Below are positions 24,765-49,537 of a stretch of 64,000 nt of DNA, one piece after another. The notes beneath the pieces were generated by a model, which had not been told where the DNA came from, made no database searches, and saw only the letters and a program-made list of their open reading frames with translations. Location: NCBI GenBank assembly GCA_965213625.1, contig CBDBZU010000004.1, positions 128,001-192,000 on the forward strand, written 5' to 3'. Source of the DNA: a bacterium. GTDB taxonomy: Bacteria > UBA8248. The first letter of the stretch is position 1. The number at the start of each line of letters is the position of its first letter. Made by a program: the position numbers and the translations under genes.

Positions 24765-24772
24765 TCTGCCCA

Positions 24773-31548: not shown

Positions 31549-31577
31549 CAACGGCGAGCGGATACAAAAGCCCTCCC

Positions 31578-31649
31578 CTATGAACGCCGCATCCCGAGGG
31601 ACGCGCCGCTCAGCACGGACGACCCCGCCGCGAAGGCCAGGCACATGAG
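31578..31649 (-). pseudogene. Displaced duplicate of the MFS gene 3' end
   Basis: 31587-31649 matches 33771-33833 at 60/63 nt; encodes LMCLAFAAGSSVLSGASLGMRRS* versus MFS LMCLAFAAGSSILSGASLGMRD*. Confidence 0.9.
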
Positions 31650-31712
31650 ATGGGTTGCGGTATGTTGACCTGCCCCAAGAATGTGATTATTTTTATGGAA
31701 AGGAGGCGCGAC

Positions 31713-31850
31713 ATGGCCGACACGGAAATGACCCGCACCCCGATTCCAAACGAGGAAACCCGCGAAGCCATTCGGCAGGCGCGCGCCGGGGAAGGGCTGA
31801 GCACGTATAGCGGCGTCGAGGAGTTGATCGCCGAACTCGACGATGCGTGA
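31713..31850 (+). CDS. Short DinJ/RelB-like antitoxin (toxin-binding part)
   Basis: IPNEETREAI..AR.G......SVEEL-type C-terminal antitoxin motif; AAGGAGG RBS. Confidence 0.7.
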   Translation: MADTEMTRTPIPNEETREAIRQARAGEGLSTYSGVEELIAELDDA

Positions 31851-31887
31851 ACTTCGCGCAACCACGTAGTTAAAAAGAGACCTCAGA
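31843..31887 (+). pseudogene. YafQ-like toxin remnant
   Basis: ATG overlapping the antitoxin end reads MRELRATT*LKRDLR, resembling a YafQ N-terminus (TxQFKRDLK) with a nonsense codon, then truncated. Confidence 0.6.
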
Positions 31888-31948
31888 ATAAACGCTCGTA
31901 TAATCTGCGATTTTTCCGTATTCCGAACGACGCACTGCATAATATTCG

Positions 31949-32560
31949 CTAAGCGCGAGTGATATCCTTAACCATCACGTCTGCAGTGATCAGGTACTTG
32001 GCTAAAAGCGGTAGTTCCGGCGAAACACGTTGTGACACTAGAAGGTTGCCGCAGGTTACGCCCCGCACTTTTGCACCGTAGTATTTCCCTATCAATTTAA
32101 CAAAATTTTTACGAGAATTGGTATTTCTGTGCACAATATGGTTGCGGATAGACCGAATCTCGGTTAAGAAACTTGCGTAATTCTTGAGCAACTGGTGGCA
32201 CTGATCGGCGGAGTCGATCAGAAATTTTATGTTGTCCCGGATCTCGGCTCCGTTATTCCATGGAAGTGTGTAGCGGAATTTCGGGCGGTTAAGGCTATGC
32301 ATCGCCTTTATCGCTGCTGGGATGTTCCTTTGTTGGGCGAGAATAATCGGTGTGCTTCCATCGATATATGTTGCACCACAAACAAGTTTGCAAAATACGG
32401 ACCTCATGGTGTTTTCAATTAGGATTGCCAACCGTATCAATGCGATCTCGGCAATGAACTTGCGGTGCGCGGGTACCAGCGAAGACGTCGACGTTAGTAT
32501 ACCAGTCAGACGGGCGGTTTCCTTCGTAAAATTAGTGAAGTCATTCGTGAGCGACGGCAT
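31949..32560 (-). CDS. HEPN domain protein (putative RNase effector)
   Basis: N-terminal helix with E (ILIEN) and RxxxxH motif RNHIVH; starts 3 nt after the DUF262 stop. Confidence 0.7.
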   Translation of the reverse strand: MPSLTNDFTNFTKETARLTGILTSTSSLVPAHRKFIAEIALIRLAILIENTMRSVFCKLVCGATYIDGSTPIILAQQRNIPAAIKAMHSLNRPKFRYTLPWNNGAEIRDNIKFLIDSADQCHQLLKNYASFLTEIRSIRNHIVHRNTNSRKNFVKLIGKYYGAKVRGVTCGNLLVSQRVSPELPLLAKYLITADVMVKDITRA

Positions 32561-32563
32561 GAT

Positions 32564-33580
32564 TTAACTAAAAGCATCGGTCAAAGCTTTATTACGGATC
32601 CCCCGCTTATTAATGCGGTGCAAATTCCCTCCACTGAAGCCCTCAAGAAAGGTTGTTTGTTCGTCAGTCTTAACGTCGAGGTCTCGATAGGCGACCACTT
32701 TTGCGTCAATGTCGTACATGCACTGCTGGATATTGGCAACGTTGACGTTTTTTCGATTTCGTAGTCGATCCACAACTACCATCAAACTGAAGGCAAGCTG
32801 TTGCTGCTGGAACACTGTGTCGGAGAATGCAGTCGTTGGAATCGAAGCGAGCTTTCCAAATAAATCCTCCAAGCGCTCACTTAGTTCTTCCATTTTCGGG
32901 AAATCTACGTCGTAGTCTTTGTAGTATTTGGTGATTTTCGGAGCGCTGAAGTCGACTAAACCCTCAGCTAAGTTAATTACGAGATCTGATACAAATTGGA
33001 CCTCCTGCATGCGCGAAATCTGCGCTGCGGAGAAGATACCGGTCGAACGCCAGAAAGGTAGCCGCATAGCCGCCTGGCTGAGGCAAAACTGCTTAAAATC
33101 TCCACTGTATTGAGCGTTCCTCTTTTCTTGTGGGTTCAGCGTTTTGGAGATTGAGTTAATACGTCCAAATATTTCGATTACATCAGGTTCTTCGGCACCA
33201 ATGAGATAGCCAACCGAGAGCGCGGTACCGAGAAACAATTTCTTCTGCGCGTTCGTAAGTTCTGAGTATTTGACCTTCTTCTTGTGATCGGGATGCCCTG
33301 CCGCGAATTCATCGTTTCGGTACGAGATGATGGATCGAATGCGTTGCTGCCCGTCCACAACCTCTTTTATTGATTTCTCTCGCTCTACGTCAATTTGGTG
33401 CCGAATATAGATGCTCGGCACTGGCTTCCCCTCGAAGATAGTATTAACGAGGTATGCCTTCTGTGGGTTCGACCAAACTGACCGGCGTTGATACCAAGGA
33501 TCTATGTTAAGGCTACCATTGTTATAAATGTTTAGCAGATCTTGGATGACCAACGATTGGTAATCGACGCGTTCCATCAT
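32564..33580 (-). CDS. DUF262 (GmrS/ParB-Srx fold) domain protein
   Basis: YQRRSVW, VVDGQQR, FGRIN, LNPQEKRNA motifs; GAGGAG RBS. Confidence 0.88.
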   Translation of the reverse strand: MMERVDYQSLVIQDLLNIYNNGSLNIDPWYQRRSVWSNPQKAYLVNTIFEGKPVPSIYIRHQIDVEREKSIKEVVDGQQRIRSIISYRNDEFAAGHPDHKKKVKYSELTNAQKKLFLGTALSVGYLIGAEEPDVIEIFGRINSISKTLNPQEKRNAQYSGDFKQFCLSQAAMRLPFWRSTGIFSAAQISRMQEVQFVSDLVINLAEGLVDFSAPKITKYYKDYDVDFPKMEELSERLEDLFGKLASIPTTAFSDTVFQQQQLAFSLMVVVDRLRNRKNVNVANIQQCMYDIDAKVVAYRDLDVKTDEQTTFLEGFSGGNLHRINKRGIRNKALTDAFS

Positions 33581-33764
33581 CTCTCCTCAGGACTGTCTAA
33601 TTGAACGTGAACGATCATGACTCGAAATTGGGTGAGGCGCAACTCAAACTAGGAGTGAATATGTTAAGTTTTTAATATGTTGAATCAAGGTATGAATAAG
33701 CCAGTATTTCAGCAAGAAGGTCGAACAGTGATTCGTACGATTTCAACACCGAAGGCGGTGAGAG

Positions 33765-34982
33765 TCAATCCCGCATCCCGAGGGACGCGCCGCTCAGTAT
33801 CGACGACCCCGCCGCGAAGGCCAGGCACATGAGGGCCAGGCTCTCCACGCTTACGCCGTAATCGATCAGCCAGCCCATGACGACGGGCGAGAGCGCCGTG
33901 GACACCACCATGAACGAGGTGGCGAGCGAGCGGATGGCTCCCAGGTTCTCCACCCCGTAGATTTCCGCCCAGATGGCCCCGCCGATGGTGATTCGCACGC
34001 CGACGGTGACGCCCGTCATGATCATGTAGATGAGGGCTACGACCCAGTGGTCGGAACTCGCCAGCGCCAGAAGCGCGACGCACATGGGCGCGAGATGCCA
34101 GGGGAGGATTTTGACCGCGCCGACGCGGTCGATGAGGGGGCCGGTGAACAGCGTCAACGTGACGGAGAAAAGCGTGTAGAGCGTGTACGCGCCCGTGAAG
34201 AAGGCGAGGCTCCACCCCTTGGCCTCCACCAGATGCCCCATGTGAAAGAAAAAGCCGGTGCCGATGAACGAGGGGGCGAGAGAGACGGGCATGATGAGAT
34301 AAAAGCGCGGATCCTTGAGCACCTCCCTTCTTCCCCACACCCCTTTGGTTCTCGCCGCGGAAGCCGCCTCCCCCGTGCGCGCCGCGCGAGCCAGGTGCTC
34401 GTCTTCATGGCCTTTGAGCAGCCAGGCGACGGCGGGAATCAGCACGAGGGCGGAGAAGGCCGCCATCACCAGCCAGGTCTGCCGCCAGGAGAACCATGCG
34501 CTCAAGGCGACCGCCACGAGCGCCATGACCGCCTGGCCCGAGGGTCCGCCCATCGAGATGATGCTGACGGCGCGCCCGCGCTCCGCCGTGAAATGCCGGC
34601 CGATGCTCGTCACCGAGGTGTGGACCATCAGCCCCTGGCCCGTGAGCCTGAGCGCGAAAAGCGTGAAGAGCAGGGCCGGGAAGGCGGGCGCCGCCGCCAT
34701 CAGGACGCAGGAGGCGACTAACCCCGCGCAGACGCACAGGGCGAAAACCTTGAGCCGCGTCTTGTCGATCATCCGGCCTATCCATATCAGGCACATGGCG
34801 CTCGATACGGTGGCGACGGCGTAGGCCAGGCCGAACTCCCCGTGGGAGAGTGCGAAGGCGGCGCGGATATCGGTGTTGAAAACGGCGATGTAATAGGATT
34901 GCCCGAAGCACGAAAAAAACGTGAGCAGGAGGCCAAAGGACAGAAAACGGCGGTTTTTCCACGCGAAGGAGAGATATTCCAA
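33765..34982 (-). CDS. MFS transporter
   Basis: About 12 hydrophobic segments, GRMIDKT and GPLIDRVG motif-A repeats. Confidence 0.9.
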   Translation of the reverse strand: MEYLSFAWKNRRFLSFGLLLTFFSCFGQSYYIAVFNTDIRAAFALSHGEFGLAYAVATVSSAMCLIWIGRMIDKTRLKVFALCVCAGLVASCVLMAAAPAFPALLFTLFALRLTGQGLMVHTSVTSIGRHFTAERGRAVSIISMGGPSGQAVMALVAVALSAWFSWRQTWLVMAAFSALVLIPAVAWLLKGHEDEHLARAARTGEAASAARTKGVWGRREVLKDPRFYLIMPVSLAPSFIGTGFFFHMGHLVEAKGWSLAFFTGAYTLYTLFSVTLTLFTGPLIDRVGAVKILPWHLAPMCVALLALASSDHWVVALIYMIMTGVTVGVRITIGGAIWAEIYGVENLGAIRSLATSFMVVSTALSPVVMGWLIDYGVSVESLALMCLAFAAGSSILSGASLGMRD

Positions 34983-35129
34983 TGGCGGCCTTCATGAAGG
35001 AGCGGGGGGTGTCGATACGAGGCGCAGTATAGCATGGGGGCGAGGTATGGAGGAGACGGCTCACCTTGACACCACTCAGACCGCCCCATACCCTGACCCC
35101 ACACCCAAACAGCGGAGGCATCGAGCGCC

Positions 35130-35816
35130 ATGCGATTCCAGATCGGCCTTCTTCTCTTCCCGAACCTCACCCAACTCGACATGACAGGCCCGTACGAGGT
35201 CTTCACCAAGTTCCCTGAGTCCGACGTGCACCTCGTATGGAAGACGCTGGACCCGGTAAAAGCCGGCGGCGGCATGGAGCTTCTGCCGGGCATGACGTTC
35301 GATGATTGTCCGCAGCTCGACCTCATCTGCGTGCCGGGCGGCGCGGGCATGAACGCGCTCTTGAACGATGAGGAGACGCTCGACTTCGTGCGCAGACAGG
35401 CGGCCGGGGCGCGCTACGTCACCTCCGTGTGCACGGGGTCGCTCGTGCTGGGCGCTGCGGGGCTTCTGAAAGGAAAGCGCGCGACCTCGCACTGGATGTC
35501 GCACGCGATGCTGGCCGCCTTCGGCTGCGAGCCCGTGGCCGAGCGCGTGGTCGTGGACGGCAACGTGATCACCGGCGGCGGGGTGACGGCGGGAATCGAC
35601 TTCGCCCTGACGGTGGCGGGCGAGTTGCTGGGGGCGGAAGCCGCCCGCAAGATACAACTCGGCATGGAGTACGACCCGCAACCACCTTTCGATTCCGGCT
35701 CTCCGGAACGGGCGGACCCGGCGATGGTCGCCGCCGTGCAGGAAGGCGCCGCCGCGCGCCAGAGCGAGCGGGAAGAAGCGGTGAATGAGGCGGCGGGTAG
35801 GCTGGGAAGCGGTTGA
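35130..35816 (+). CDS. DJ-1/PfpI family protein (isonitrile hydratase-like)
   Basis: QLDMTGPYEVF, VPGG, SVCTGS catalytic Cys, TGGGVTAGIDF, EYDPQPPFDSGSP. Confidence 0.9.
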   Translation: MRFQIGLLLFPNLTQLDMTGPYEVFTKFPESDVHLVWKTLDPVKAGGGMELLPGMTFDDCPQLDLICVPGGAGMNALLNDEETLDFVRRQAAGARYVTSVCTGSLVLGAAGLLKGKRATSHWMSHAMLAAFGCEPVAERVVVDGNVITGGGVTAGIDFALTVAGELLGAEAARKIQLGMEYDPQPPFDSGSPERADPAMVAAVQEGAAARQSEREEAVNEAAGRLGSG

Positions 35817-35892
35817 TGATGCTTGGAGTTGGGGTCGCGCTCCTTATACATCACTCAACTTAAGTCTGTAGTTATTCCTGTGATGTGAAAAA

Positions 35893-36354
35893 TTACCCGA
35901 CACTCCGGCGCCGTCCGACCCACCTCCTGACGCTTAGGCAATAGGCTTCGTATCGTTCGCCGAATTTCCGACGCATCGCGCGCTCCTCATATGCGATGTA
36001 GCAATACCGGACAATGACGGCGAAGAGGGCGCTCAAGATGAGTGCGGCCAGCGTTCTCGAAACCAGTGCGGCGCCGAACACCGCCAGCACCAGACCGAGA
36101 TACATCGGGTTTCTACTCATGCTGTAGATACCTTCGGTCACCAGTTCTCCGGGTTCCTCGAATGTATACACATTCGTGCCGATACGTTGGAACAGCTTCT
36201 TTCCGGCGACCGAAACGCCGATGCCGAATATAAATACCGCGATACCTCCCCATAAGAGCAACGGTTCCGTGAAACGCATCAACGGGATGAAACGCTCTAC
36301 CGTGAAGATTGCGGCTATCAGAATCCAGAACAGGGTAGGTGGATTAATTTGCAT
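35893..36354 (-). CDS. Isoprenylcysteine carboxylmethyltransferase / PEMT family membrane protein
   Basis: LVTEGIYSMSRNPMYLG, EERAM..KFG..Y..Y...VRRW. Confidence 0.85.
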   Translation of the reverse strand: MQINPPTLFWILIAAIFTVERFIPLMRFTEPLLLWGGIAVFIFGIGVSVAGKKLFQRIGTNVYTFEEPGELVTEGIYSMSRNPMYLGLVLAVFGAALVSRTLAALILSALFAVIVRYCYIAYEERAMRRKFGERYEAYCLSVRRWVGRRRSVG

Positions 36355-36600
36355 GCGCCTTGTCCTTAAAGACGTCATCCGCCGGTTGCAGCAGGTAGGC
36401 TTCGCCGGCGGTGAGCATTCTGAATGACCTCCCAGGAATTCGAACGATACAACAGGAAGTGTAAGGAAACCGTTTGGAAACGAACAAGATTCAGGAATAC
36501 TTTTGGTTTGTGGCGTCCGGCTTGACGAATAGGGAGAGCCCAAAAGAAAGGAACTCCTAAGAAATTCACCAAGGAATAGAAGAAAGACCGTATTTCAATT

Positions 36601-36900
36601 CACTCCCCTTGAGGGGGTCGGGCTTCCCGAGGGGGAAAGCCCAATGAAAAAGTTCCTTTTCAGAGGGTAGAAGGGACGCCTTTTTCGACTGGAAAAGCAA
36701 CCCCCCAACCCCCCTTGTCAGGGGGGTAAAATCAAAATGCCCCCCCGACAGAGGGGGTAAAGGCGATGCCCCCCGAAAAGGGTGTGAAAGAAAAGCCCCC
36801 CTGACAAGGGGGGTTGGGGGGTTATTCCCTTGGCAAAGGTTTTTTTACAGCCCCCATAGGGCAGATCACGACCTCGGGCCGCTCACGAGCGGCCCCTACA
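36601..36900. repeat. Degenerate stack of palindromic elements
   Basis: CACTCCCCTTGAGGGGG start, CCCCCCTTGTCAGGGGGG / CCCCCCTGACAAGGGGGG pair, TTTTACAGCCCC end, GGGCCGCTCACGAGCGGCCCCTAC REP. Confidence 0.6.
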
Positions 36901-36979
36901 TACATGCTGATCTCACAACAAAGGCCGCCCTGGCGGGCGGCAACAAACCCGCGAGGACGGCCCCTGGTTGATAAAACTG

Positions 36980-38341
36980 CTAGGCGTCGAAATACTCGCG
37001 CGTGACCTTGAAGACCATCGGCGCGAGCAGGAGCAGGCCGATGAGGTTGGGCACCGCCATCAGCCCGTTCAGCGTGTCAGACAAGTTCCAGACGAAGGCC
37101 ACCTTCACGTTCGCGAAGCCGAGCGCCGCCAGCACCCACAGGCCCCGGTAGACCATGAGGCTGTTCTCGCTGAAGAGATACTGCCAGCACCGCTCGCCGT
37201 AGTACGACCAGCCCAGGATGGTGGTGAAGGCGAATACGGCCAGCGCAAGCGTGACGATGTAGTTCCCGCCCGCGATGGTGCTCTGGAAACCCGCCGAGGT
37301 GAGCAAAACGCCCGTCAAGCCCTTGCCGGCCGCGTCCTTCAGCACCCATGCGCCCGAAGTCAGGATGACCAGCGCCGTCATCGTGCAGACCACGATGGTG
37401 TCGATGAAGGTGCCGAGCATGGCGATGACGCCCTGGCGGACCGGGCTGTTCGTCTGCGCCGCCGCGTGCGCGATGGCCGCCGAGCCCAGTCCCGATTCGT
37501 TCGAGAACACGCCGCGCGCGACGCCGAAGCGAACCGCCGCCGCCACCGCAGCGCCCGCGAAACCGCCCGCTGCCGCCGCCGGGGTAAAGGCGTGCTTGAA
37601 GATGAGGCCGATGGCCGCCGGCACTGCGGTGATGTTGATGAGAATGATGATGAGCGCAGCGCCCACATACAGCACGATCATCGCAGGCACGAGCTTGCCC
37701 GCCACCTCGCCGATCCGCTGGATGCCGCCCAGGATGACGAAGCCCACCAGCCCGGCCACGACGACCCCCGTCAGCCAGGTGGGGATCAGAAAGCTGTCGG
37801 CAAGCGCGGTCGCCATCGAATTCACCTGCACGGCGTTACCGATGCCGAAGGCCGCCACCGCGCCGAACACGGCGAACGCGAGCCCCAGCCACTTGGCGAG
37901 TTCGGGCGCGAATTCACCCACGCCGTTCCTGAGATAATACATGGGACCGCCCACGTACTTGCCCGCCGCGTCCACCTCGCGGTAGGTGACCGCGCAGACG
38001 GCTTCTGCGTATTTCGTCGCCATGCCGAAGAGCGCGATGAGCCACATGTAGAAGATGGCCCCCGGTCCGCCCAGGGCGATGGCGGTGGCGACGCCGGCGA
38101 TGTTCCCGGTGCCGACGGTAGCGGAGAGCGCCGTCATCAGCGCGTTGAAGGGCTTGACCTCACCCTCGCCGACCTCCCCCTCCGTGTCGTACAAGAGCCT
38201 GAAGCCGTAGCCCACCTTGCGCCAGGGCATGAATACCATCCCCAGCGTGAGCAGCACGCCCGTCACGCCCAGCATGCCGAGCATCGGCGGCCCCCAGGCG
38301 AAGGCGTTCACGGAACTAATCATGGAATTCAGCCAATCCAT
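36980..38341 (-). CDS. Sodium:alanine/glycine symporter (AGCS family)
   Basis: ATVGTGNIAGVA.AI..GGPGAIF.MW, GGPMYY, RGVFSNESGLGS, FAFTTILGWSYYGE. Confidence 0.95.
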   Translation of the reverse strand: MDWLNSMISSVNAFAWGPPMLGMLGVTGVLLTLGMVFMPWRKVGYGFRLLYDTEGEVGEGEVKPFNALMTALSATVGTGNIAGVATAIALGGPGAIFYMWLIALFGMATKYAEAVCAVTYREVDAAGKYVGGPMYYLRNGVGEFAPELAKWLGLAFAVFGAVAAFGIGNAVQVNSMATALADSFLIPTWLTGVVVAGLVGFVILGGIQRIGEVAGKLVPAMIVLYVGAALIIILINITAVPAAIGLIFKHAFTPAAAAGGFAGAAVAAAVRFGVARGVFSNESGLGSAAIAHAAAQTNSPVRQGVIAMLGTFIDTIVVCTMTALVILTSGAWVLKDAAGKGLTGVLLTSAGFQSTIAGGNYIVTLALAVFAFTTILGWSYYGERCWQYLFSENSLMVYRGLWVLAALGFANVKVAFVWNLSDTLNGLMAVPNLIGLLLLAPMVFKVTREYFDA

Positions 38342-38548
38342 CGCATCTACCCCCTCTTGGTGCTACGAAGTTGGCGGCCAGATGGTGTCCCACTGGTCCG
38401 GGCGGCGGACGCCATCCCTCTTAAAAAAACTACCAGACAATATTCGGGCGGGATATATATTTATACGGCGGGAGAGGCCTAGGTGAAAATACTATAAAAA
38501 AACGATGCGCCTCGCAAACAATCGAAAACCGGCCTCCGCGCGGCGTCC

Positions 38549-38982
38549 GGGGGTTGTTGAAAAAGTCCTTGCTGTTGAGTTGGGATTCCACCTGTAGGGG
38601 CCGCATAGTATGCGGCCCTTCCCGTCCGGCATTCGGGACGCATGTATGTCGGACATATATGTCCGACCTACACGGAAACGGCAATGATGCCGGAATGACG
38701 GCGGTGGTTAATTCCGAGTGAGGAGAGGGGAAATTCACTCCCCCCTTGAGGGGGAGTCGATGAAGCCGAGCGGTATTTGCGAAGGCTGAATCGGTGGGGG
38801 GTAAAATGCGTATTATTGCCATTCCGAATTATACCCCCCACCAGTTCACTTTCGGGCTTACGCCCTCAGTTCACTGTCGGTCTTCCCCGAGGGAGACCGA
38901 CCCTCAAGGGGGGAGTGAATTCCCTCTCTCATCGGTCAGTCAGATACACCGAATCGCGAAATCAGGGTTTTTCAACACCCCC
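38549..38982. mobile_element. Nested MITE: TIR element containing a REP doublet and a CACTCCCCCCTTGAG element
   Basis: GGGGGTTGTTGAAAAA...TTTTTCAACACCCCC; REP pair at ~38594-38670; inner element 38736-38917. Confidence 0.75.
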
Positions 38983-39145
38983 TTTTTCCCTTGCGCGGCC
39001 TCCCCGGTGGCGTTCATAATCAGGATATTCAACGAAACGGGAGGCGCGCGATGAAGATGCCACCGGCGGCGCTTGCCGATGGAACGCTCTCGCGGCATGC
39101 CCTAAAATGGACCGGCTTCGATCTGACACCACAGGAATGAACGAG

Positions 39146-40470: not shown

Positions 40471-40508
40471 ATTTAATAAAAAGGGGGACACGAAAATCGG
40501 ATCCCCCC

Positions 40509-40807: not shown

Positions 40808-40808
40808 G

Positions 40809-42224: not shown

Positions 42225-42487
42225 CGTTCCCCTCCGTCGAGCCACCCGCCAAGCGTCTCGAGCGTCTTCGTAACGGCAGGCTGGCCGACTTCCACAGCCG
42301 CCGCGATGTCCGATATGCGGCTCCCTCGCCGTGATCGTTGCCTGACGATGTGATGCAGGATGCCGGACTGACCCAACGTCAGACCGTGGGGTTCCAGCAA
42401 AATGGTCATGCGTGTTCCGAAAAGCCGGCTGACATGGGACAGCCAGGTTGCACATTCGGAAACCGGCGGGCCTGTGAGATTCGACAT
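42221..42487 (-). pseudogene. Truncated MarR-family regulator
   Basis: LEPHGLTLGQ..IL..SDIAAAVEVGQPAVTKTLETL, then the wing and C-terminal helices are missing. Confidence 0.55.
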
Positions 42488-42678
42488 GGTTTCACTATTC
42501 GCTTGATTTGCATTCCAAAGAATATAAAAAAATATTCCAAGGAATACAAATTGAGATAGCGGAATGTTCCTGAAGCTGCCGGACCGCGTTCAGCGGCGGG
42601 AGAGGTTGGACGATCTCTTTGGCTGATTACGGCTGAGACTGCTCGCGAATCCGGGCCGCTCGCGAGCGGCGCCTACAG

Positions 42679-43005
42679 TCAACCGCGCGGCTCATCCTCC
42701 GCGATGCCTTTAAGCACGACCGGGGCGCGGTCGGGAAATTCGGCGACCAGCGAGAGGCGCCCGCCCATCGCCTCGACGGTCTTTCTGAGCGTGGAGAGCA
42801 GGAGGTCGCTTCGCTTCTCGAGCCTCGATACGCCGTCCTGCGTGATGCCCAACTCCTCCGCCATGCGCGCCTGTGTCAACTCCCGCGCCTTTCTGAGATC
42901 GCGCAGGGTCATCTCCTCCGCGACCAACTCCGCCGCTCGCGCCTCGACCTTCTTGCGTCGTGCGGGGCTTAGCTTTTTGATCTTTTTGTTTACGTTTACG
43001 GGCAT
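42679..43005 (-). CDS. XRE/HigA-like HTH antitoxin (orphan)
   Basis: TLRDLRKARELTQ..MAEELGITQDGVSRLEKRSDLLLSTLRKTVEAMGG.L.LVAEFPD. Confidence 0.85.
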   Translation of the reverse strand: MPVNVNKKIKKLSPARRKKVEARAAELVAEEMTLRDLRKARELTQARMAEELGITQDGVSRLEKRSDLLLSTLRKTVEAMGGRLSLVAEFPDRAPVVLKGIAEDEPRG

Positions 43006-43253
43006 GGTTCTTTCTCTCGAATGTTAGGTGTGGACGTATGATATGTTGTGGGAGACATATGTTGTCAAGTGCATGTTCTATAAAAAAGAAAGCTTTTTAG
43101 ATGTAGATTTTCTGGAGGTTGCAAGTGAAAAATAAAACGATCAGCAAGCTCCATCTTCGAGTAAATGACTAGACAAGTAGAAGTTTACCCGATAGGCAAG
43201 TTTGCGAAGAACAAAAACCACCTAATCTAATCAAGACAACTGGAGACATAAGA

Positions 43254-44210
43254 GTGAATGAATTGCCAGCTATCGTCGTACACTGCGACTGGAGCGTGGA
43301 GCAAGGAAAAAGATGGATGGCTTGTGCAGTCCGCAACGGAAACCTCTGGGAACTCAAGCAACCTGAGTTAGTTGGAACTACGAAGGACTTGTTCCAGAGG
43401 TTACAAAATCGAAAAAAAACACCTGGATGTTTATTTGTAGGTTTAGACTTTCCGATCGGCTTGCCAAAATACTACGGCGAAAAAACAGGATTCTCTAATT
43501 TTCGTAACGCTCTTCGAAATTTTGGTTGTGATAAATGGAAAGATTGGTATTCCGTTTGTGAAACTCACGAGGAAATATCAATTACTCGCCCATTCTATCC
43601 AATGAGACCTGGAGGCACCGAGCAAAAGCATCTTCTGGACGGGCTAATGTGCGAAACCCCTGAGCAACTCCTGCGTATTTGCGAGAGAAAAACAAGTAAT
43701 CGAAACGCAGCCTGCATGTTGTTTTGGACCCTTGGCGGCAATCAAGTTGGGAAAGCTGCTATTTCAGGCTGGCGTGAACTTCTTGCACCAAATTTTGATG
43801 TGTTAGGACTTTGGCCGTTCGACGGACAATTGCATGAACTGTTCGCTCAATTCGATATCGTCATCGCTGAGACATATCCTGGGGACGCTTATGGGCAACT
43901 GGGCATCCCACGATATCCCCGATGGAGCAAACGAAAGCGTGCCGGTAGACAGTCAATATCCCAACATCTTTTGAACTGGTTAAGCTCACGTCCAGTTTCA
44001 TTTCATGCAAGACTGGATAGCAACATCAGGCATGGTTTTTCAGAGAATTCACAAGGAAAAGACAAGTTCGGTGAAGATAAATTTGACGCAACCGTGGGGC
44101 TATTCTGTATGCTTGATGTGGTATGTGGCCGCATTCCCGAAAATATTCCAGGCAATAAGTCTATTACTCGTTGGGAAGGGTGGATCCTTGGGCAAGAATT
44201 CAATATCTGA
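43254..44210 (+). CDS. DUF429-like protein (predicted RNase H-fold nuclease)
   Basis: HCDWS, GLDFPIGLP, FWTLGGNQVGKAA, LWPFDG, AETYP, EDKFDA, EGWILG. Confidence 0.68.
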   Translation: MNELPAIVVHCDWSVEQGKRWMACAVRNGNLWELKQPELVGTTKDLFQRLQNRKKTPGCLFVGLDFPIGLPKYYGEKTGFSNFRNALRNFGCDKWKDWYSVCETHEEISITRPFYPMRPGGTEQKHLLDGLMCETPEQLLRICERKTSNRNAACMLFWTLGGNQVGKAAISGWRELLAPNFDVLGLWPFDGQLHELFAQFDIVIAETYPGDAYGQLGIPRYPRWSKRKRAGRQSISQHLLNWLSSRPVSFHARLDSNIRHGFSENSQGKDKFGEDKFDATVGLFCMLDVVCGRIPENIPGNKSITRWEGWILGQEFNI

Positions 44211-44336
44211 AATAGGCAATGGTCGCTCATTACAATGAGAGGTTTCCGCATGATCGAGTGACGGCATACGGATCACGGAAAATCGTCACAGCCGGGTGTA
44301 CCACACCGAGGTTGGCTCTGCGTCGGAATCGAAGAT

Positions 44337-44765
44337 TTGGAAGAACCATCCCAAATTTGTGAGATGTGTGAAAGTGTTGAAATTCGTTACGTGCATTTAA
44401 TGCAACACTCTGACTACCCTGAAACATTAGGTGTTGGTTGCATTTACGCCGAAAACATGGAGAACGACAAAGTAAATCCGGGCCGGAGAGAGAAAAAGCT
44501 GAAGACTAAGGCGCGGCGGCGGAAGAAATGGTCGAATCGTGAGTGGCGAACCTCTATCAAGGGTAATCCCTATCTCAACACCGAAGGTTTCAATTTGACT
44601 ATTTTCCCGGCAACGGGCAGTAGAGGCTTGTATTGGATGCTCCTAGTGACCCACCGAGAAAGTGGCGCCTCTCAGTTTGGCCGTCGACGCTATAGATCAG
44701 AGGAAGAAGCAAAAAAAGCCGCTCTCGATGCTTTGATCTGGACCAAGGAACATCTTGGATACTGA
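44337..44765 (+). CDS. Hypothetical protein with Zn-finger-like CEMC..IRYVH..GC motif (5' end possibly disrupted)
   Basis: The frame stays open upstream (GKSSQPGVPHRGWLCVGIEDL) back to an in-frame TGA at 44259 just after ATG 44250. Confidence 0.55.
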   Translation: MEEPSQICEMCESVEIRYVHLMQHSDYPETLGVGCIYAENMENDKVNPGRREKKLKTKARRRKKWSNREWRTSIKGNPYLNTEGFNLTIFPATGSRGLYWMLLVTHRESGASQFGRRRYRSEEEAKKAALDALIWTKEHLGY

Positions 44766-44919
44766 TCTCCATCCACACGCCTCCGTCTCTTTGCCCAGTA
44801 TCGAGAGTTTTCCCATAGTTGATCAGGCGAGTTGCGGTTTTTACAAGTATGTTCTGGGACGTTGGCCGCTCGCTTGAAAATTCTCATTCCGTTGAAAACC
44901 CTAAGAAAAGAACACCCCC

Positions 44920-44984
44920 CTACTCCACCTTTCTCCTCATCCTCTACTTCTCGGCGCGGGCGCGTTTATCCTTCAAGCGTTTTT
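44920..44984 (-). pseudogene. Displaced, diverged duplicate of the arfB 3' end
   Basis: 52/65 nt identical to 49124-49188, ungapped, with 16 consecutive identical nt (TCCTTCAAGCGTTTTT); encodes KRLKDKRARAEK*RMRRKVE* versus ArfB KRLKDKRQRADKKRMRGKVG*. Confidence 0.85.
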
Positions 44985-45172
44985 GCAGGGGAGAGTGCCA
45001 AAGACAACAATAGCTTGCCAAAGTTTGCCGCAGTACTTGGTACGGTGCATTATAATGAAAAAGATGCGGAAGTATGGTAGACAAAGCATCGAAACCAAAC
45101 GAGTGAGAAATACAGTCTCAGGATACGTCGTTAAACTATTAAAGCATGTTGAAGGCTAAAGGTGAAGGATTT

Positions 45173-47857
45173 ATGGAGGGAACCCAGCAATTCCAATCCG
45201 AAACCATGCGAGCCGCACTAAACCTGCCGAACGGCGCGCGGTTTTATCGTTGCGCCTTGCAAGTGAACCCATTCGCCTATCTCGCCAGACATAATAAATC
45301 AACATCATTTCAGTCCGAAGACGAATACAACGAAGCAATCATTGAGGCCTGCCTTAAGACAGAAACCGAGGTGATTGGCGTTACGGACCATTACCGTATA
45401 GAGGATTCCAGGAAACTAATCGCCTCCGCTCGCGAAGCCGGTTTATGGGCTTTTAGCGGATTTGAAGCCATAACAAAGGACGGCGTTCACTTTCTTTGCC
45501 ATTTCGATCCCGATAAAGACAATAATCTGGAGAGATTCATCGGCGACTGCGGTATTCACGATTCTAGCCAACTCTCACCGATAGGAGAACTAGACTGCAC
45601 TGAGCTTCTGGACCATTCAAAGGAATGGGGGGCTACTTGCATTGCTGCGCATGTGGCGTCGGAAGGTGGTCTTTTAAGAAAGCTGTCAGGACAAACACGG
45701 ATCAAAGTCTGGAAATCGCCTAACCTGCTTGCCTGCGCGCTTCCCGGACCCGCTGACGACGCACCGCAGGGGGTCAAAGAGATACTTAAAAATAAGGACG
45801 CTCAACACAAGCGCGGACGCGCAGTAGCTATCATAAATGCGTCAGATGTAAGCGATCCCGAAGACCTGAGGAAGGAAAGCGCGTCCTGCTTCATCAAGAT
45901 GTCGGATGTCTCTGTCGAAGCATTTCGCCAGGCATTTCTTGATCCGGAATCCCGTGTAAGGCTACACAGCGATCCCCAACAAGAACCCCATGCCGAACTT
46001 CTTGCTATGACTTGGGAAGGCGGTTTTTTACAAGACACCTCAATTCATTTCAATGAGAATCTCAATGCCGTGGTCGGCGGACGCGGCACGGGTAAATCCA
46101 CGATGATCGAGAGCATCCGTTATGTGTTGGGTCTTGAGCCACTCGGAGAAGACGCGCGCAAGGCGCACGAAGGAGTGGTTCGCAACGTATTGAAAGCGGG
46201 GACAAAAGTTTCGCTGATGGCGCGGTCACACAAACCACCAAAACGTTGCTACAGCATCGAGCGCTCAGTGCCTAACCCGCCGGTCGTCAAGGACGAAACT
46301 GGTGAAGTGTTGCCTATATCACCACGAGACGCGATGCCCGGCGTAGAAGTTTTCGGCCAACATGAAATCTCGGAACTCACCAAAAGCCCCGAAAAACGCA
46401 CCTTGCTATTGGAGCGGTTCATCGAGAGTGATCCGTCGATGGCCGGACGAAAAGTGAAATTGCAATTGGAACTTGAGAGGTCGCGAAGCAGGATTGTGGA
46501 CGTAAGGCGAGAGATGAGAACGCTCGAGGAGCGACTTGCAGTTCTGCCGGGTCTGGAAGAAACCGAGAAGCGCTTTCAGCAGGCCGGCCTGGAAGAGCGG
46601 CTCAAGGAAAAAAGCCTTCTCATTAAGGAAGAGCGCCTATTTTCAAACCTTGCCGAGCGGATGCAACCGTTTCGGACGCTTCACCATGAACTGATTGAAG
46701 CCCTTCCGATCGATACAGCATTCGTGTCCGACAAGGCGCTTGATGGATTACCAAACTCAGAAACATTGCGGGAACTAGAAACAATTCTTAAAACCCTGAG
46801 TACACGCCTCAAAGTGGTTAGCGTGCATTTTGCCGAAGCTTTGGCCGAGACCGATACTGCAATCGAGAACCTTAGGGCGAGATGGGATAAACAACGCTCG
46901 GCAATTGAGGATAATTACGAGCAGTTATTACGAGAACTTCAGAAATCGAATATCGATGGCGCGGAATTTATCCAACTCCGCAGGCAGATCGAAGAATTGC
47001 GTCCGCTTAAAGACCGAATGGAAAATCTTAATCGCGATTTGGGCACCCATGAAGCTCACCGCCGCAACCTGCTCTCAGAATGGGAGGACGTCAAAGGTAG
47101 TGAATTTCGTGAAATTGAGAAAGCCACCAGAAAAGTTTCAAAGCAACTCAAAGGGCGAGTGCAGGTCGAAGTTACGATGGCAGGCAACCGCGATCCATTG
47201 GAACGAGTCTTAAGGGAGGTTGGCGGAAACCTCGCTGCCGCTATCGAGCGTCTTCGAGAACTGGAACAACTTTCCCTCCGCGAGTTTGCGCAATGCTGTC
47301 GGGAAGGCAAAGAATCCCTGATGGAGAACTACGATCTCCCCTCTGGCTCAGCAGAACGGATATCGCGGGCCGAGCCCGAGCTATTCATGAGAATCGAAGA
47401 ACTGGAACTTCCCGCGACAACTCAAATTGAATTAAATACTGCTGCGGAGGGAGACCAAGCGGTATGGCAAACGCTGGAAGCGCTTTCCACCGGACAAAAG
47501 GCAACCGCCGTTCTGTTGCTCTTGCTCTTGGAATCCGAGGCTCCACTTGTCGTCGATCAGCCCGAAGACGACCTCGACAACCGTTTCATCACCGAAGGCG
47601 TCGTACCGATCATGCGACGGGAAAAACGTCGACGGCAATTCGTCTTCTCAACGCACAACGCGAATATTCCCGTGCTGGGTGATGCCGAACTCATCTTGGG
47701 CCTTTCCGCTTCCGGCGAGGCGGAAGAAGGGCAGGCCAGGATTGCTCCAGAACATATGGGTTCGATTGATTCCCAGCCGGTTCGGGAACTGGTCGAGGAA
47801 ATCCTCGAAGGCGGGAAAGACGCCTTCGAAATGCGTCGTTCCAAGTACGGTTTCTAG
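45173..47857 (+). CDS. PHP-domain / SMC-like ABC ATPase fusion (TrlF/Ppl-like)
   Basis: N-terminal PHP-like domain (CALQVNP, VTDH, GFE, H, AAH, ASD), Walker A GGRGTGKS, long coiled coil, LSTGQK, VVDQPEDDLD, STHN. Confidence 0.85.
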   Translation: MEGTQQFQSETMRAALNLPNGARFYRCALQVNPFAYLARHNKSTSFQSEDEYNEAIIEACLKTETEVIGVTDHYRIEDSRKLIASAREAGLWAFSGFEAITKDGVHFLCHFDPDKDNNLERFIGDCGIHDSSQLSPIGELDCTELLDHSKEWGATCIAAHVASEGGLLRKLSGQTRIKVWKSPNLLACALPGPADDAPQGVKEILKNKDAQHKRGRAVAIINASDVSDPEDLRKESASCFIKMSDVSVEAFRQAFLDPESRVRLHSDPQQEPHAELLAMTWEGGFLQDTSIHFNENLNAVVGGRGTGKSTMIESIRYVLGLEPLGEDARKAHEGVVRNVLKAGTKVSLMARSHKPPKRCYSIERSVPNPPVVKDETGEVLPISPRDAMPGVEVFGQHEISELTKSPEKRTLLLERFIESDPSMAGRKVKLQLELERSRSRIVDVRREMRTLEERLAVLPGLEETEKRFQQAGLEERLKEKSLLIKEERLFSNLAERMQPFRTLHHELIEALPIDTAFVSDKALDGLPNSETLRELETILKTLSTRLKVVSVHFAEALAETDTAIENLRARWDKQRSAIEDNYEQLLRELQKSNIDGAEFIQLRRQIEELRPLKDRMENLNRDLGTHEAHRRNLLSEWEDVKGSEFREIEKATRKVSKQLKGRVQVEVTMAGNRDPLERVLREVGGNLAAAIERLRELEQLSLREFAQCCREGKESLMENYDLPSGSAERISRAEPELFMRIEELELPATTQIELNTAAEGDQAVWQTLEALSTGQKATAVLLLLLLESEAPLVVDQPEDDLDNRFITEGVVPIMRREKRRRQFVFSTHNANIPVLGDAELILGLSASGEAEEGQARIAPEHMGSIDSQPVRELVEEILEGGKDAFEMRRSKYGF

Positions 47858-47859
47858 TC

Positions 47860-49086
47860 ATGACTACGCGGACGGAGCTATTGGAAATAATCGCAAACGG
47901 CGAAAACTCCGGCATTGATTTCAAGCGAGATGTCTTGCAAAACCAAGACCTCGCAAAAGAACTAGTCGCCTTCTCGAATTTAGATGGTGGAATGGTTCTG
48001 CTGGGAGTAGATGATGATGGGAATATTACCGGCTTAACTCGGCCTCGCTTGGAAGAGTGGGTCATGACTGCATGCCGGGACAAGATCAGGCCAGCCATCA
48101 TTCCATTTTTCGAGACGATTAAGAATGTGGAACAGGGAAAGGACGTGGCGATTGTACGTGTTCCGCGCGGAGGCGACGTACACAGCCAGTGGCATAACAA
48201 CAGGAATACTTATTACATCCGGGTAGGTTCACAAAGTCGGGAACCGACGCCACAGGAACTAAGCCGCTTGTTTCAACAACGCGGCGCGTTTCGCGCCGAT
48301 CTAAGACCGATTTCCGGTGCAACCATTGAGGATTTAGACCGCCGTCGACTCAAGGATTACTTCAGCCGGGTTCGTCAACAAGAAATTCCAGCAGACACAA
48401 ACGACTCGAATTGGCATTCCTTGCTAATCAATACGGAAATCCTGCTCGAAGAGGGCGTAACCCTTTCAGGAATGCTGCTCTTCGGAAATACGCCGAACCG
48501 GTTTCTGCCACAGGCGGGCATTGATGCGGCGGCGTTTCCGGGAATGGAAAAAGATTATGCGGCGAAAGAGCGAGTGGCACTGCGCGGACCTATGACACCA
48601 CTCTTGGATCAGAGCAATACTATTGTGGAATCTGGCTTGGTCGAGCAGGCACTGGATTTCGTCAGACGCAACACTCCCGTGACTGCCGTTCTCGAAGATG
48701 GCGCACGTCGAGTGGAAAAAAGAACATATCCAGACAAGGTCATCCGAGAAGCCATAGTAAATGCCCTGATCCACCGAGACTATCTTCTAGGAAACGTCGA
48801 TATCGAACTGGCGATTTATGAGGACCGGCTGGAAATTATCTCGCCCGGTAAGCTCCCGAACGGAATCACGCCGGATCGAATGCGTGTTGGAACACGCGCG
48901 GCACGAAACCAACTCCTGAAAGACGTTATGCGTGACTACGGGTATCTCGAACATATGGGAATGGGCGTACCCCTCATAATAATTCGCGGAATGATGGAAC
49001 ACAACGAGACCGACCCCGACCTTGCCGAAGAAGATGAAAGGTTCATGGTTCGGCTCTTTGCGGGGAATCAATCTAAATGCGAGTAA
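47860..49086 (+). CDS. Schlafen/AlbA_2 domain + HATPase_c_4 (RecG-C-like) protein
   Basis: GENSGIDFK..AFSN..GG..LGVDDDG (AlbA_2); REAIVNALIHRDY, SPG.LP, RN, E..GMG (HATPase_c_4). Confidence 0.85.
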   Translation: MTTRTELLEIIANGENSGIDFKRDVLQNQDLAKELVAFSNLDGGMVLLGVDDDGNITGLTRPRLEEWVMTACRDKIRPAIIPFFETIKNVEQGKDVAIVRVPRGGDVHSQWHNNRNTYYIRVGSQSREPTPQELSRLFQQRGAFRADLRPISGATIEDLDRRRLKDYFSRVRQQEIPADTNDSNWHSLLINTEILLEEGVTLSGMLLFGNTPNRFLPQAGIDAAAFPGMEKDYAAKERVALRGPMTPLLDQSNTIVESGLVEQALDFVRRNTPVTAVLEDGARRVEKRTYPDKVIREAIVNALIHRDYLLGNVDIELAIYEDRLEIISPGKLPNGITPDRMRVGTRAARNQLLKDVMRDYGYLEHMGMGVPLIIIRGMMEHNETDPDLAEEDERFMVRLFAGNQSKCE

Positions 49087-49123
49087 CAACCTAAATATTT
49101 GCGTACAGTTCTCCTGAAAAAAT

Positions 49124-49537
49124 TCACCCCACCTTCCCTCTCATTCTCTTCTTATCGGCGCGTTGGCGTTTGTCCTTCAAGCGTTTTTCTTGCGACCCTC
49201 GGGTGGGGCGCGTGGGGCGGCGCGGCCGGGGCGGGTCGGCGGCGGCGGCGAGGGCGGCGCGCAGCTTCTCGAGGCAGTCGGCGACGTTCCGGCCCTGATC
49301 GCGAAAGCGGCTGCTCGCGATGACCACGTGGCCCTCGCGCGTCACGCGGCGCGGGTGGAGCGCGCGGAGCCTCGCCTTCACGCCCTCGGGCGCGCTCGGC
49401 GAGGCGGCCATGTTCCAGCGCAGCACCGCCTTGGAGGAGACCTTGTTGACGTTCTGCCCGCCGGGGCCGGAGCTTCGCGCGAACTGGAAGTGGATTTCGC
49501 GCAAGGGGATGCGGAGCCTCTCGTTCACGATGAGCAT
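49124..49537 (-). CDS. arfB: Alternative ribosome rescue factor ArfB (peptidyl-tRNA hydrolase)
   Basis: ARSSGPGGQNVNKVSS (GGQ), R.Q..N, basic C-tail RRPTRPT..S.EKRL..K. Confidence 0.95.
   Translation of the reverse strand: MLIVNERLRIPLREIHFQFARSSGPGGQNVNKVSSKAVLRWNMAASPSAPEGVKARLRALHPRRVTREGHVVIASSRFRDQGRNVADCLEKLRAALAAAADPPRPRRPTRPTRGSQEKRLKDKRQRADKKRMRGKVG

Follow-up and report, generated by a model that had tools for sequence, protein, structure and literature searches.

Duplicated gene tails as scars of integrase-free insertions behind an MFS transporter gene and arfB in a bacterial genome and its relatives

The analysed window is a stretch of 64,000 nt on one contig of a bacterial genome (G000), and contains two intact minus-strand genes, an MFS transporter gene and arfB, that are each duplicated at the 3' end. 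A preliminary description of the window had reported that the last 63-65 bp of both genes recur downstream, and whole-genome self-BLAST confirms this at 63 nt each. In both pairs the right-hand copy is the 3' end of the intact gene and the left-hand copy is an orphan tail, 2.2 kb (MFS) or 4.2 kb (arfB) downstream of the host gene, and the repeats end at the stop codon or within a few nt of it. The GC content between the copies (inserts of 2.1 and 4.1 kb, respectively) is 0.44-0.49 at MFS and 0.46-0.55 at arfB, compared with 0.59-0.68 in the flanks. The MFS locus is made up as follows:

31587..31649, minus strand: orphan MFS tail (pseudo-tail, last 63 nt), 95% identical to 33771-33833 (repeat 1, whole-genome self-BLAST E 9.8e-18), running on into the ancestral downstream flank
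31713..31850, plus strand: remnant of a dinJ/RelB-family antitoxin gene (45 aa) that has lost 141 nt internally, in frame
31843..31891, plus strand: start of a yafQ toxin gene (~49 nt), truncated by cassette 1 and with an early TAG
31949..32560, minus strand: 203-aa protein, partner gene in cassette 1, with no Pfam or NCBIfam family and a weak PADLOC Cas13-ApeA match (1.3e-3)
32564..33580, minus strand: GmrSD_N/DUF262 protein of a defence-type nuclease family, 338 aa, cassette 1 (Pfam PF03235 1.4e-19; PADLOC NsnA 1e-27, PD-T4-2_A 1.6e-20)
33765..34982, minus strand: intact MFS transporter gene (Pfam MFS_1 1.5e-40), tail repeat at 33771-33833

The dinJ remnant aligns to the full-length dinJ of the relative G013 (RelB, E 7e-7) with L025 15463-15603 missing, and the same deletion allele, 94.9% identical, is carried by G014. 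The yafQ fragment matches the beginning of yafQ in G013 (YafQ_toxin, E 7.7e-33) at 90% identity. Together, the dinJ-yafQ remnant (31713-31891) is a GC-rich part of cassette 1, which corrects the first reading of this stretch. The orphan MFS tail extends two codons beyond the repeat to a TAG of its own, and with its flank it is colinear with the single tail and flank of G008, G004, G006 and G031; in the empty sites of G031, G011, G002, G008, G004, G006 and G010, a single tail is directly continued by the flank found after the G000 orphan. The last 6 nt and the stop codon of the intact MFS gene are unlike those of all relatives in the tail alignment. The junction of a dinJ-yafQ insertion behind MFS is common to two relatives, G013 and G034. 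On these alignments, the orphan MFS tail belongs to an older dinJ-yafQ toxin-antitoxin insertion: the dinJ-yafQ module arrived first, with the duplication, and most of yafQ was later replaced by the AT-rich two-gene DUF262 cassette. The MFS locus holds a lesson for annotation, namely that an orphan tail beside a defence cassette is no proof that the cassette made the duplication.

The arfB locus carries a further low-GC island (island A) on the far side of the orphan tail:

42679..43005, minus strand: XRE-type HTH gene (Pfam HTH_37/HTH_3), far boundary of the arfB hotspot, conserved in G000, G031, G011 and G002
43006..44921, plus strand: island A, of low GC, beyond the orphan arfB tail, with a 318-aa ORF (43254-44210) and a 142-aa ORF (44337-44765)
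44922..44984, minus strand: orphan arfB tail (last 63 nt), 83% identical to 49126-49188 (repeat 2, whole-genome self-BLAST E 7.0e-7), with native-type stop and flank TAGGGGGG
45146..47857, plus strand: TrlF-family AAA-like ATPase, 903 aa, cassette 2 (NCBIfam NF045780 1.8e-152, 510 bits, cut-off 350)
47860..49086, plus strand: Schlafen AlbA_2 and HATPase_c_4 protein, 408 aa, cassette 2 (Pfam 2.5e-20 and 1.5e-20)
49124..49537, minus strand: intact arfB (Pfam RF-1), tail repeat at 49126-49188

The low-GC stretch at arfB reaches left past the orphan tail to 43006, which again corrects the first reading. Island A (GC 0.41-0.51) has no Pfam, PADLOC or NCBIfam match and is absent from the relatives fetched. 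Beyond it, the segment 40699-43076, including the HTH gene, is 97% identical to G031, the closest relative, whose arfB is also 97% identical. The orphan arfB tail has one in-frame TAG in addition to its terminal TAG. Its stop and flank match those of G031, G013, G011, G002 and the G014 orphan, and the same motif lies downstream in G017 (C271). A local alignment seeking a longer arfB remnant upstream of the orphan gave a score of 16, the same as shuffled sequences. The C-terminus of the TrlF-family protein resembles Ppl (PADLOC Ppl 7e-39). GC content and family matches bear out the earlier statement that AT-richer cassettes with defence-type proteins lie between the copies, the defence role of both cassettes being predicted from those matches. 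The cassettes had also been described as free of recombinases; in agreement with this, Pfam, NCBIfam and PADLOC scans matched no integrase or transposase family in cassette 1, cassette 2 or island A, and the nearest Phage_integrase match to both cassettes is at window position 62427 and later.

We fetched the arfB regions of 13 relatives and characterised ten, nine with named cargo plus G004, where the site is empty with 170 nt between arfB and a PPK2 gene. Behind arfB these ten show seven states, the empty site and six other cargo types:

G008: Type ISP restriction enzyme
G011 and G002: Dcm, an HATPase_c_3 protein and Vsr
G031: 1,735-aa helicase with a REase_MTES_1575 domain
G014: AAA_21 ATPase and a 174-aa protein
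G013: AdoMet_dc-like and DUF3326 genes
G006 and G034: TrlF and Schlafen pair, at ~77-78% nt identity (alignments include arfB)

The arfB cargo proteins scanned in the relatives gave no recombinase family match. As the recurrent capture proposed in the preliminary description would lead one to expect, empty sites or other cargo are found at the MFS and arfB loci of relatives. Extra pieces of arfB, surveyed in 23 genomes of the genus, range from 62 nt to the whole gene:

G000: 63 nt
G014: 64-81 nt plus nt 157-189 (score 41, shuffle maximum 27)
G017: 88 nt
G004: nt -28 to 324
G034: whole second copy
G013 and G014: 5' fragments

The orphans start at ~nt 350 of arfB in G000, 332 in G014 and 323 in G017, and the crossover point is not fixed across insertions. 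The upstream sides of the G000 and G014 orphans have in common a 9-mer, GCACTCTCC, which scored 18 against a shuffle maximum of 24 and was not accepted as homology. In G006, a search at the distal end of cassette 2 found no orphan arfB tail; since G006 and G034 carry cassette 2 without an orphan tail, the tail duplication is not obligatory for carrying it.

The two arfB tails of G000 differ in their affinities. Against G031, mismatches along the working gene number 0/230, 4/119 and, in the last 65 nt, 12/65. Because the tail has 12 mismatches in 65 positions, as opposed to 4/349 outside it, the working arfB tail is foreign to the rest of the gene; it appears to be of other ancestry and to have arrived with the cassette. 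Its ending GGGGTGA is cassette-linked, being common to the working arfB of G000, to G006 and to the second arfB copy of G034, and the orphan tail retains the native ending given in the feature list. A single arfB tail is present in G004, G031, G013 and G011. Block-wise, the identity of the flanks to G031 ranges from 90 to 97%, with mismatches concentrated in the arfB tail. The G000 working, G000 orphan and G031 tails are pairwise 80-86% identical (52, 53 and 56 of 65), so that “native” and “imported” are mosaic calls and not clean ones. Judged by these comparisons, the MFS and arfB cases are different types of event. The preliminary description saw one mechanism at work twice, and this stands for the architecture, found at both loci, but not for a single shared type of event bringing in the defence cassettes, as the MFS orphan is older than the DUF262 cassette.

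Tail duplications with cargo behind them recur across the genome, as had been predicted. Of 32 repeats that touch a stop codon, 12 are multi-copy, 5 touch two gene ends, and the rest have their second copy downstream in 13 cases and upstream in 2 (one-sided binomial 0.004 for two-copy repeats of the filtered set); only the filtered set gave this asymmetry, the unfiltered ORF count being 50 versus 35. The gene set for this survey came from a greedy longest-ORF heuristic, which failed to call guaA, gave a wrong arfB call (set right by hand), assigned MFS to the two-gene-end class via a spurious 120-aa ORF and left a locus at 1.663 Mb among the multi-copy repeats. In a crude histogram, repeat ends within 12 nt of stop codons numbered 21 versus 16 in a mirror control, with no clear peak; as the genome-wide set was chosen for stop-touching repeats, it cannot test stop-codon bias. 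Cargo at other loci includes TctABC transporter genes, lipoproteins and an oxidoreductase, and a route specific to defence modules is not supported. The near-equal repeat length had been singled out as unexplained, but stop-touching two-copy repeats measure 29-132 nt genome-wide and the arfB pieces vary as widely as listed above, and the equal length of 63 nt is therefore a coincidence.

Empty sites or different cargo are found in relatives at MFS, arfB, guaA, a Gfo/Idh/MocA-type gene (Gfo-type) and two further loci. None of 22 relatives has the guaA cargo, 15 of them having an empty site there; the TctABC locus is empty in four of five relatives and the 1.663-Mb locus in one of five. The guaA and Gfo-type repeats are 97-98% identical, with 35 of 36 positions identical at guaA, where the working copy equals the G031 tail exactly. 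The junctions at the Gfo-type gene recur in other species (G011, G012, G003 and G014). The five relatives searched match the TctABC cargo only weakly (68-80%), in scattered pieces that lie elsewhere in the genome, and so a near-relative donor is not evident.

Insertion scars of this kind are already known from the literature, and they are found repeatedly in this genome and in related ones. For restriction-modification units, insertion with long target duplication was reportedly described by Nobusato et al. in 2000. The scars are best read as belonging to this published class, an integrase-free insertion with long, variable target duplication, the mechanism of which is not established (Furuta, Abe & Kobayashi 2010, PMC2853133). 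As in that class, the insert is a small block (<20 kb; 2.1 and 4.1 kb here) without a mobility gene, and the long, variable direct repeats, of tens of bp (>30 bp), align to a single copy at the empty site of relatives (MFS, arfB and guaA). The class was screened by R and M homologues in the insert, whereas the cargo here is a DUF262 pair (with the 203-aa partner), TrlF and Schlafen, toxin-antitoxin, transporters or lipoproteins and not restriction-modification, and the repeats are always a gene tail. Since the arfB copies seem to differ in ancestry, a strict “target duplication” is doubtful at arfB.

The “minimal mobile elements” of Neisseria are varied cargo at one chromosomal spot between conserved genes, without a recombinase. 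Hotspots without mobile elements, with recombination at flanking core genes, are described by Oliveira et al. 2017 (PMC5635113). The loci studied here resemble those hotspots in having different accessory genes in the same interval between conserved genes of relatives, no recombinase and a mosaic flank identity (90-97% versus G031). The difference from both is that a double crossover, with exchange in each of the two flanks, leaves no duplication, whereas a remnant of the flanking gene persists at the present loci and requires an event that is one-sided or has a single crossover. In homology-facilitated illegitimate recombination (HFIR; PMC3240628), one homologous anchor suffices for the entry of foreign DNA, and duplications can arise during exchange in the transformation-generated merodiploids of PMC3784515; both are laboratory events. 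The likeness lies in a single homologous anchor together with a duplication, a tail duplication with its joint inside the anchor gene not being confirmed for either.

On balance, and with some reserve, we favour the reading that the MFS and arfB loci are hotspots without an integrase, placed directly behind conserved genes, at which related strains gain and exchange cargo by homology-guided insertion. As regards the route of recombination and the way of DNA entry into the cell, which we infer, the incoming DNA from a relative would bring its own version of the conserved gene's end, with cargo behind it, and would recombine inside the resident copy of that gene end. Either a circularised fragment would undergo one homologous crossover, or one end would be joined by a homologous crossover and the other illegitimately. 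An imported tail, with the cargo after it, would then complete the working gene, the resident tail being displaced downstream as a decaying orphan, and the DNA between gene and orphan could later be replaced again. The repeats of tens of nt would be survivors, as long ones would presumably recombine and delete the cargo, and orphans erode. For the transformation or HFIR-like route suggested earlier, this means that homology as the driving force fits better than integrases do, the route itself being conjectural. The genes comEC and dprA are present, but both also match in E. coli and other non-competent control genomes, so their presence decides nothing on competence. No donor, circle or empty-site subpopulation was seen among the relatives fetched and the short-read contigs of four public runs, which drop rare variants. 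Several observations run against homology-guided insertion. In all four of the repeats studied in most detail, ~6 nt at most separate the repeat end from the stop codon, as would also be expected of an attP with a replacement end, and the 97-98% identity of the guaA and Gfo-type repeats fits true target duplication equally. The histogram without a clear peak, the unfiltered count, the orphan-free cassette 2 of G006 and G034 and the mosaic state of the arfB tails weigh in the same direction.

Prophage e14 and phage 21 in icd of E. coli bring an imported replacement end that keeps the gene intact, the native end being displaced beyond the insert, and such elements have their own integrase and one fixed att site. 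The scars described here share with them the imported gene end and the native end on the far side of the insert, but are integrase-free, with many targets and variable extents. It is unlikely, although worth serious consideration, that the cassettes are remnants or non-autonomous relatives of site-specific integrative elements (CIME-like), in which an attP carried the replacement gene end, a tyrosine integrase recombined it with the 3' end of the gene, and that integrase was lost or acts in trans. The order of restored gene, cargo and displaced native tail is the classical one, the repeats stop at the stop codon in MFS (seen in G013), arfB, guaA and the Gfo-type gene, and their lengths (36-63 nt) are within the range spanned by long att identity blocks in actinomycete and archaeal elements. 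The genome moreover has 29 Phage_integrase matches with 9 tandem pairs, one of them from window position 62427. Nevertheless, an integrase inside the element next to the att site, the hallmark of such elements, is found in neither cassette nor in island A, and neither an integrase nor an integrase pseudogene occurs in the examined cargo of G000 or of the scanned relatives. The target sequences are many and unrelated, the arfB pieces vary up to a whole gene with the G000 and G014 orphan starts ~20 nt apart, and the MFS and Gfo-type repeats enclose a toxin-antitoxin pair or a ~400-nt repeat element and not an island. Nor does any repeat tie the sites to the element of the tandem integrases: in an indirect test, the region upstream of the pair in the window (188.5-190.6 kb of the contig) shared no repeat with sequence up to 150 kb away. 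On both counts, targets and linking repeats, the earlier suggestion of these integrases acting in trans is not supported.

Rather improbable is a true insertion with long target duplication, in which non-homologous DNA entered at staggered breaks and both 36-63 nt copies are recipient-derived and identical at birth. A class of this kind is published for restriction-modification units without another mobile element, with repeats >30 bp, for example 46, 47 and 65 bp (PMC2853133). The recent guaA insertion, with its near-identical copies and a working copy equal to the G031 tail, would suit such an origin, as would the TctABC cargo without an evident near-relative donor. At arfB, however, the insertion is absent from G031 and hence younger than the split from it, yet the copies are only 83% alike, with 12/65 tail differences, and so were probably different at birth; the working tail also has the cassette-linked features common to G006 and G034. 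It is extremely improbable that the duplicates match by chance or are products of a strain-chimeric assembly. The assembly does contain redundancy (C4 1-11070 equals 184758-195821 at 99.8%) and 5.16% contamination, and in runs X13 and X14 the contig with cassette 2 is covered 1.3-1.4x as deeply as the adjoining one and shows variant letters at 45112 and 45119. The E-values (1e-17 and 7e-7) are, however, at whole-genome scale, and the same junctions occur in other species (G013 and G034 for MFS, and the four relatives named above for the Gfo-type). Independent short-read contigs of the four runs also reproduce the arrangement, one 7,796-nt contig (covering 41858-49653) crossing the orphan tail, cassette 2 and arfB, which contradicts the chimera that had been named as a possible refutation.

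A bolder reading, which we regard as a long shot, takes the gene tails as addresses for an integrase-free system of cassette exchange. A cassette between two tail copies would loop out as a circle via recombination between the copies, pass to a relative and insert there at the corresponding gene, with a mere 30-130 nt of homology sufficing for host RecA (or an unrecognised enzyme). If so, modules would be pooled across the genus much as cassettes are in integrons, but no dedicated integrase would be involved. Furuta et al. (PMC2853133) put forward a similar “virus-like life cycle” for restriction-modification units, but did not demonstrate it. As regards excision or circles, among 15 of the 42 contig joints of runs X12-X15 over 31000-50500, none connects the two copies of either repeat; because contigs drop rare variants, this counts neither for nor against such forms.

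Whatever the route, anti-phage and other accessory genes are renewed here without visible mobile-element machinery, in a bacterium that is probably sponge-associated, and orphan gene tails can be read as dated scars of insertion events. For a class that has been in print since 2000 without an established mechanism, more than 12 scars and a genus with empty, filled and re-filled sites are good material. Outside the genus, cassette 2 was found at four loci from one scan, with arfB within 6 kb of none of them, and there is thus no sign that cassette 2 itself seeks arfB. A Thermoanaerobaculia MAG also has the TrlF and Schlafen pair (57% and 63% identity).

Whole-genome self-BLAST of the genome under study (G000; 4.15 Mb in 4 contigs, the window being positions 128001-192000 of contig C4, 64 kb) recovers the two direct repeats of the preliminary description, with E-values at whole-genome scale that exclude a chance match for both. 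In each repeat, an intact gene ends in the right-hand copy (the working tail), and the left-hand copy is an orphan tail.

31587-31649 and 33771-33833, direct, 63 nt: repeat 1 (95% identity, E 9.8e-18)
31713-31850: dinJ remnant with an in-frame 141-nt deletion
33765-34982, minus strand: intact MFS transporter gene, its 3' end the right-hand copy of repeat 1
44922-44984 and 49126-49188, direct, 63 nt: repeat 2 (83% identity, E 7.0e-7)
49124-49537, minus strand: intact arfB (RF-1 domain), its 3' end the right-hand copy of repeat 2

The reading frame of the MFS orphan extends two more codons to a TAG, and the arfB orphan carries one TAG in frame and another at its end. GC content is 0.44-0.55 between the repeat copies, against 0.59-0.68 in the surroundings. 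Cassette 1, behind the MFS gene, encodes a GmrSD_N/DUF262 protein (PADLOC NsnA, 1e-27) and a 203-aa protein. Cassette 2, behind arfB, encodes a 903-aa TrlF-family AAA-like ATPase (NCBIfam 510 bits, cut-off 350; PADLOC Ppl match of 7e-39 over the C-terminus) and a Schlafen protein with AlbA_2 and HATPase_c_4 domains. As the latter two genes also stand side by side in a Thermoanaerobaculia MAG (57% and 63% identity), the pair is a unit. Family searches matched no recombinase among the proteins of cassettes 1 and 2, as previously claimed.

The arrangement is recovered in short-read contigs of four public runs (X12-X15), which contain 0.98 of sampled words and contradict an origin of the duplicates as assembly artefacts; the assembly may itself derive from these runs, whose agreement is a check on it rather than independent biology. 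One 7,796-nt contig (41858-49653) spans the orphan tail, cassette 2 and arfB. Another, of 2,212 nt, starts inside the MFS orphan and stops inside the working MFS tail, the outcome expected of a k = 31 graph with a 34-nt identical block. Depth in run X12 is 40.6, versus 39.6 and 39.8 for the adjoining contigs. Runs X13 and X14 hold a contig (45120-49229, cassette 2 plus arfB tail) at 1.3-1.4 times its neighbour's depth, with variant letters at 45112 and 45119; a second strain with cassette 2 in another context may be present. The start of contig C4 also takes part in large near-identical duplications, of 1-11070 with 184758-195821 (99.8%, taking in 56758-64000 of the window) and of 15138-28638 with 4111203-4124725 (98.3%), which may be assembly redundancy or recent mobile-element copies.

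Comparison across the genus indicates a composite history for the MFS locus. Seven relatives (G031, G011, G002, G008, G004, G006 and G010) have a single MFS tail and are empty; they include G031, the closest relative of G000 (arfB 97%, flanks 90-97% identical). In all seven the tail leads directly into the sequence left of the G000 orphan, and therefore the orphan and its left flank represent the ancestral gene end. Other relatives carry a dinJ-yafQ toxin-antitoxin module here. In G013 the order is MFS, yafQ, dinJ, orphan tail of 60-63 nt (YafQ_toxin E 7.7e-33, RelB E 7e-7), G034 shares this junction, its orphan shortened to about 17 nt, and G007 and G014 retain the module or a remnant with no clear orphan. 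The G000 orphan likewise adjoins the promoter side of this module, not the AT-rich cassette; only the first ~49 nt of yafQ are left, and the DUF262 cassette fills the interval between this stub and a point 6 nt short of the MFS stop. The orphan thus belongs to the dinJ-yafQ junction, and the proposal that the defence cassette made the duplication is not supported: the duplication arrived with the toxin-antitoxin module, inside which the cassette is a later replacement. The dinJ deletion allele recurs in G014 (stretch L029, 16693-16828) at 94.9% identity, with flanking genes at only about 84%, which suggests that a small dinJ segment was exchanged between the two lineages.

At the arfB locus, a hotspot for defence genes, partial copies of arfB are numerous. 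Extra arfB pieces were surveyed in 23 genus genomes, 18 of them with an arfB match.

Cargo behind arfB and extra arfB pieces
G000: TrlF and Schlafen pair; 63 nt
G006 and G034: the same pair at ~77-78% nucleotide identity, arfB included in the alignments; in G034 a whole second copy interrupted by a transposon
G004: empty, 170 nt to the PPK2 gene; nt -28 to 324
G010: about 1 kb
G008: Type ISP restriction enzyme
G011 and G002: Vsr, HATPase_c_3 protein, Dcm
G031: 1,735-aa helicase with REase_MTES_1575
G013: AdoMet_dc-like and DUF3326 genes; 5' fragments
G014: AAA_21 ATPase and 174-aa protein, then orphan arfB tail, then further cargo; 64-81 nt plus nt 157-189 (score 41, shuffle maximum 27), 5' fragments
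G017: 88 nt

Among the part of the cargo ORFs scanned in relatives other than G001, no protein matched a recombinase. The G034 insertion (~3.1 kb, stretch L040 about 9659-12814, 23-nt terminal inverted repeats, 8-bp target duplication) into the hotspot is an ordinary transposon. Left of the G000 orphan is island A (43006-44921; two ORFs without family), bordered by an HTH gene common to G031, G011 and G002.

The G000 orphan retains the stop and flank TAGGGGGG, as in G031, G013, G011, G002, the G014 orphan and G017, and the working tail terminates GGGGTGA, as in the cassette-linked arfB of G006 and G034. Since mismatches between working arfB and that of G031 run 0/230, 4/119 and 12/65 along the gene, the last 65 nt differ in history from the remainder of the gene. 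The picture is a mosaic, as the three tails are pairwise identical at only 52-56 of 65 positions.

Tail duplication recurs throughout G000. A whole-genome scan for direct repeats (10-mer seeds, spacing 200 nt to 20 kb) found 712 pairs, 626 of them no longer than 150 nt. With all ORFs of at least 100 aa, the second copy lies downstream of the gene end in 50 pairs and upstream in 35, counts that contain many paralogues or multi-copy repeats. Filtering to a greedy non-overlapping gene set, with a stop codon within 12 nt of the repeat, leaves 32 pairs, 12 of them multi-copy and 5 touching two gene ends (the MFS repeat falls here through a spurious ORF); in the remainder the second copy is downstream in 13 and upstream in 2. 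Among the cargo are TctC/B/A transporter genes, lipoproteins, an oxidoreductase and IS copies, so the pattern is not specific to defence. The guaA locus (36-nt repeat) has 0.9 kb of cargo, present in 0/22 relatives, in 15 of which the guaA tail leads straight into what lies beyond the distal repeat in G000. The TctABC locus (55-nt repeat) is empty in 4/5 relatives, and a locus at 1.663 Mb (38-nt repeat) is filled in 4/5 and empty in G006. At a Gfo/Idh/MocA-type gene (47-nt repeat), 10 relatives are empty, the repeat flanks only a ~400-nt multi-copy GC-rich element in G011, G012, G003 and G014, and G000 carries an AT-rich 268-aa gene in addition; like the MFS locus, this is an old duplication that received its insert later. 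Given lengths of 29-132 nt at stop codons genome-wide and 36-55 nt at the checked loci, the equal length of the window's two repeats, previously taken as a clue, is a coincidence.

Placement of the cassettes by a site-specific integrase at replacement-end att sites would explain why the repeats end at stop codons, and integrases abound in G000 (29 matches, 9 tandem pairs). However, the target sequences are unrelated to one another, the arfB repeat boundaries vary from genome to genome, and no repeat connects the sites with the tandem-integrase element from 62427 onward, making this explanation, including action in trans by that element as first suggested, unlikely. Strict target duplication, with both copies from the recipient, fits guaA, where 35 of 36 positions are identical, but not arfB, where the event is young and yet the copies are only 83% alike. 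Homology-guided entry accounts for most of the facts, and we infer the following route. DNA from relatives, comprising a gene tail and cargo, would enter by homology through one crossover within the gene tail, the far side having no usable homology; the displaced tail would then decay, and the cargo could later be replaced again. The integrase element comprises two tandem tyrosine-recombinase genes (62427-63665, and 63595 to beyond 64000). The Phage_integrase tandem pairs of G000, spaced about 1.2 kb, lie within 3-5 kb segments that form a repeat family (78-95% identity).

PMC2853133 describes insertion with long target duplication, with repeats above 30 bp, its authors stating that experimental evidence for release and re-entry is absent, and PMC5635113 describes hotspots without mobile elements, with recombination at flanking core genes. 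The G000 loci are real and well documented, and they represent a known kind of scar, not a new kind of element; the comparison across relatives gives the case useful depth. Relative to this literature, what is added is cargo wider than restriction-modification and, within a single genome, the asymmetry between downstream and upstream copies.

A GC-rich repeat of about 110-270 nt, modular and in part palindromic, occurs at 38730-38920, 40250-40420, 49690-49950 and about 36600-36850; copies lie next to arfB, around the PPK2 gene and within the tail duplication of the Gfo-type gene. BLAST finds 85 matches to it in G000, 20-30 per genome in most relatives searched and 1-2 in four of them, and the repeat is a candidate REP/BIME-like or MITE-like element. 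A chlorite-dismutase-family gene (59619-60467, Pfam 8.8e-59) adjoins an epimerase gene, with a SCO1/SenC gene one gene beyond.
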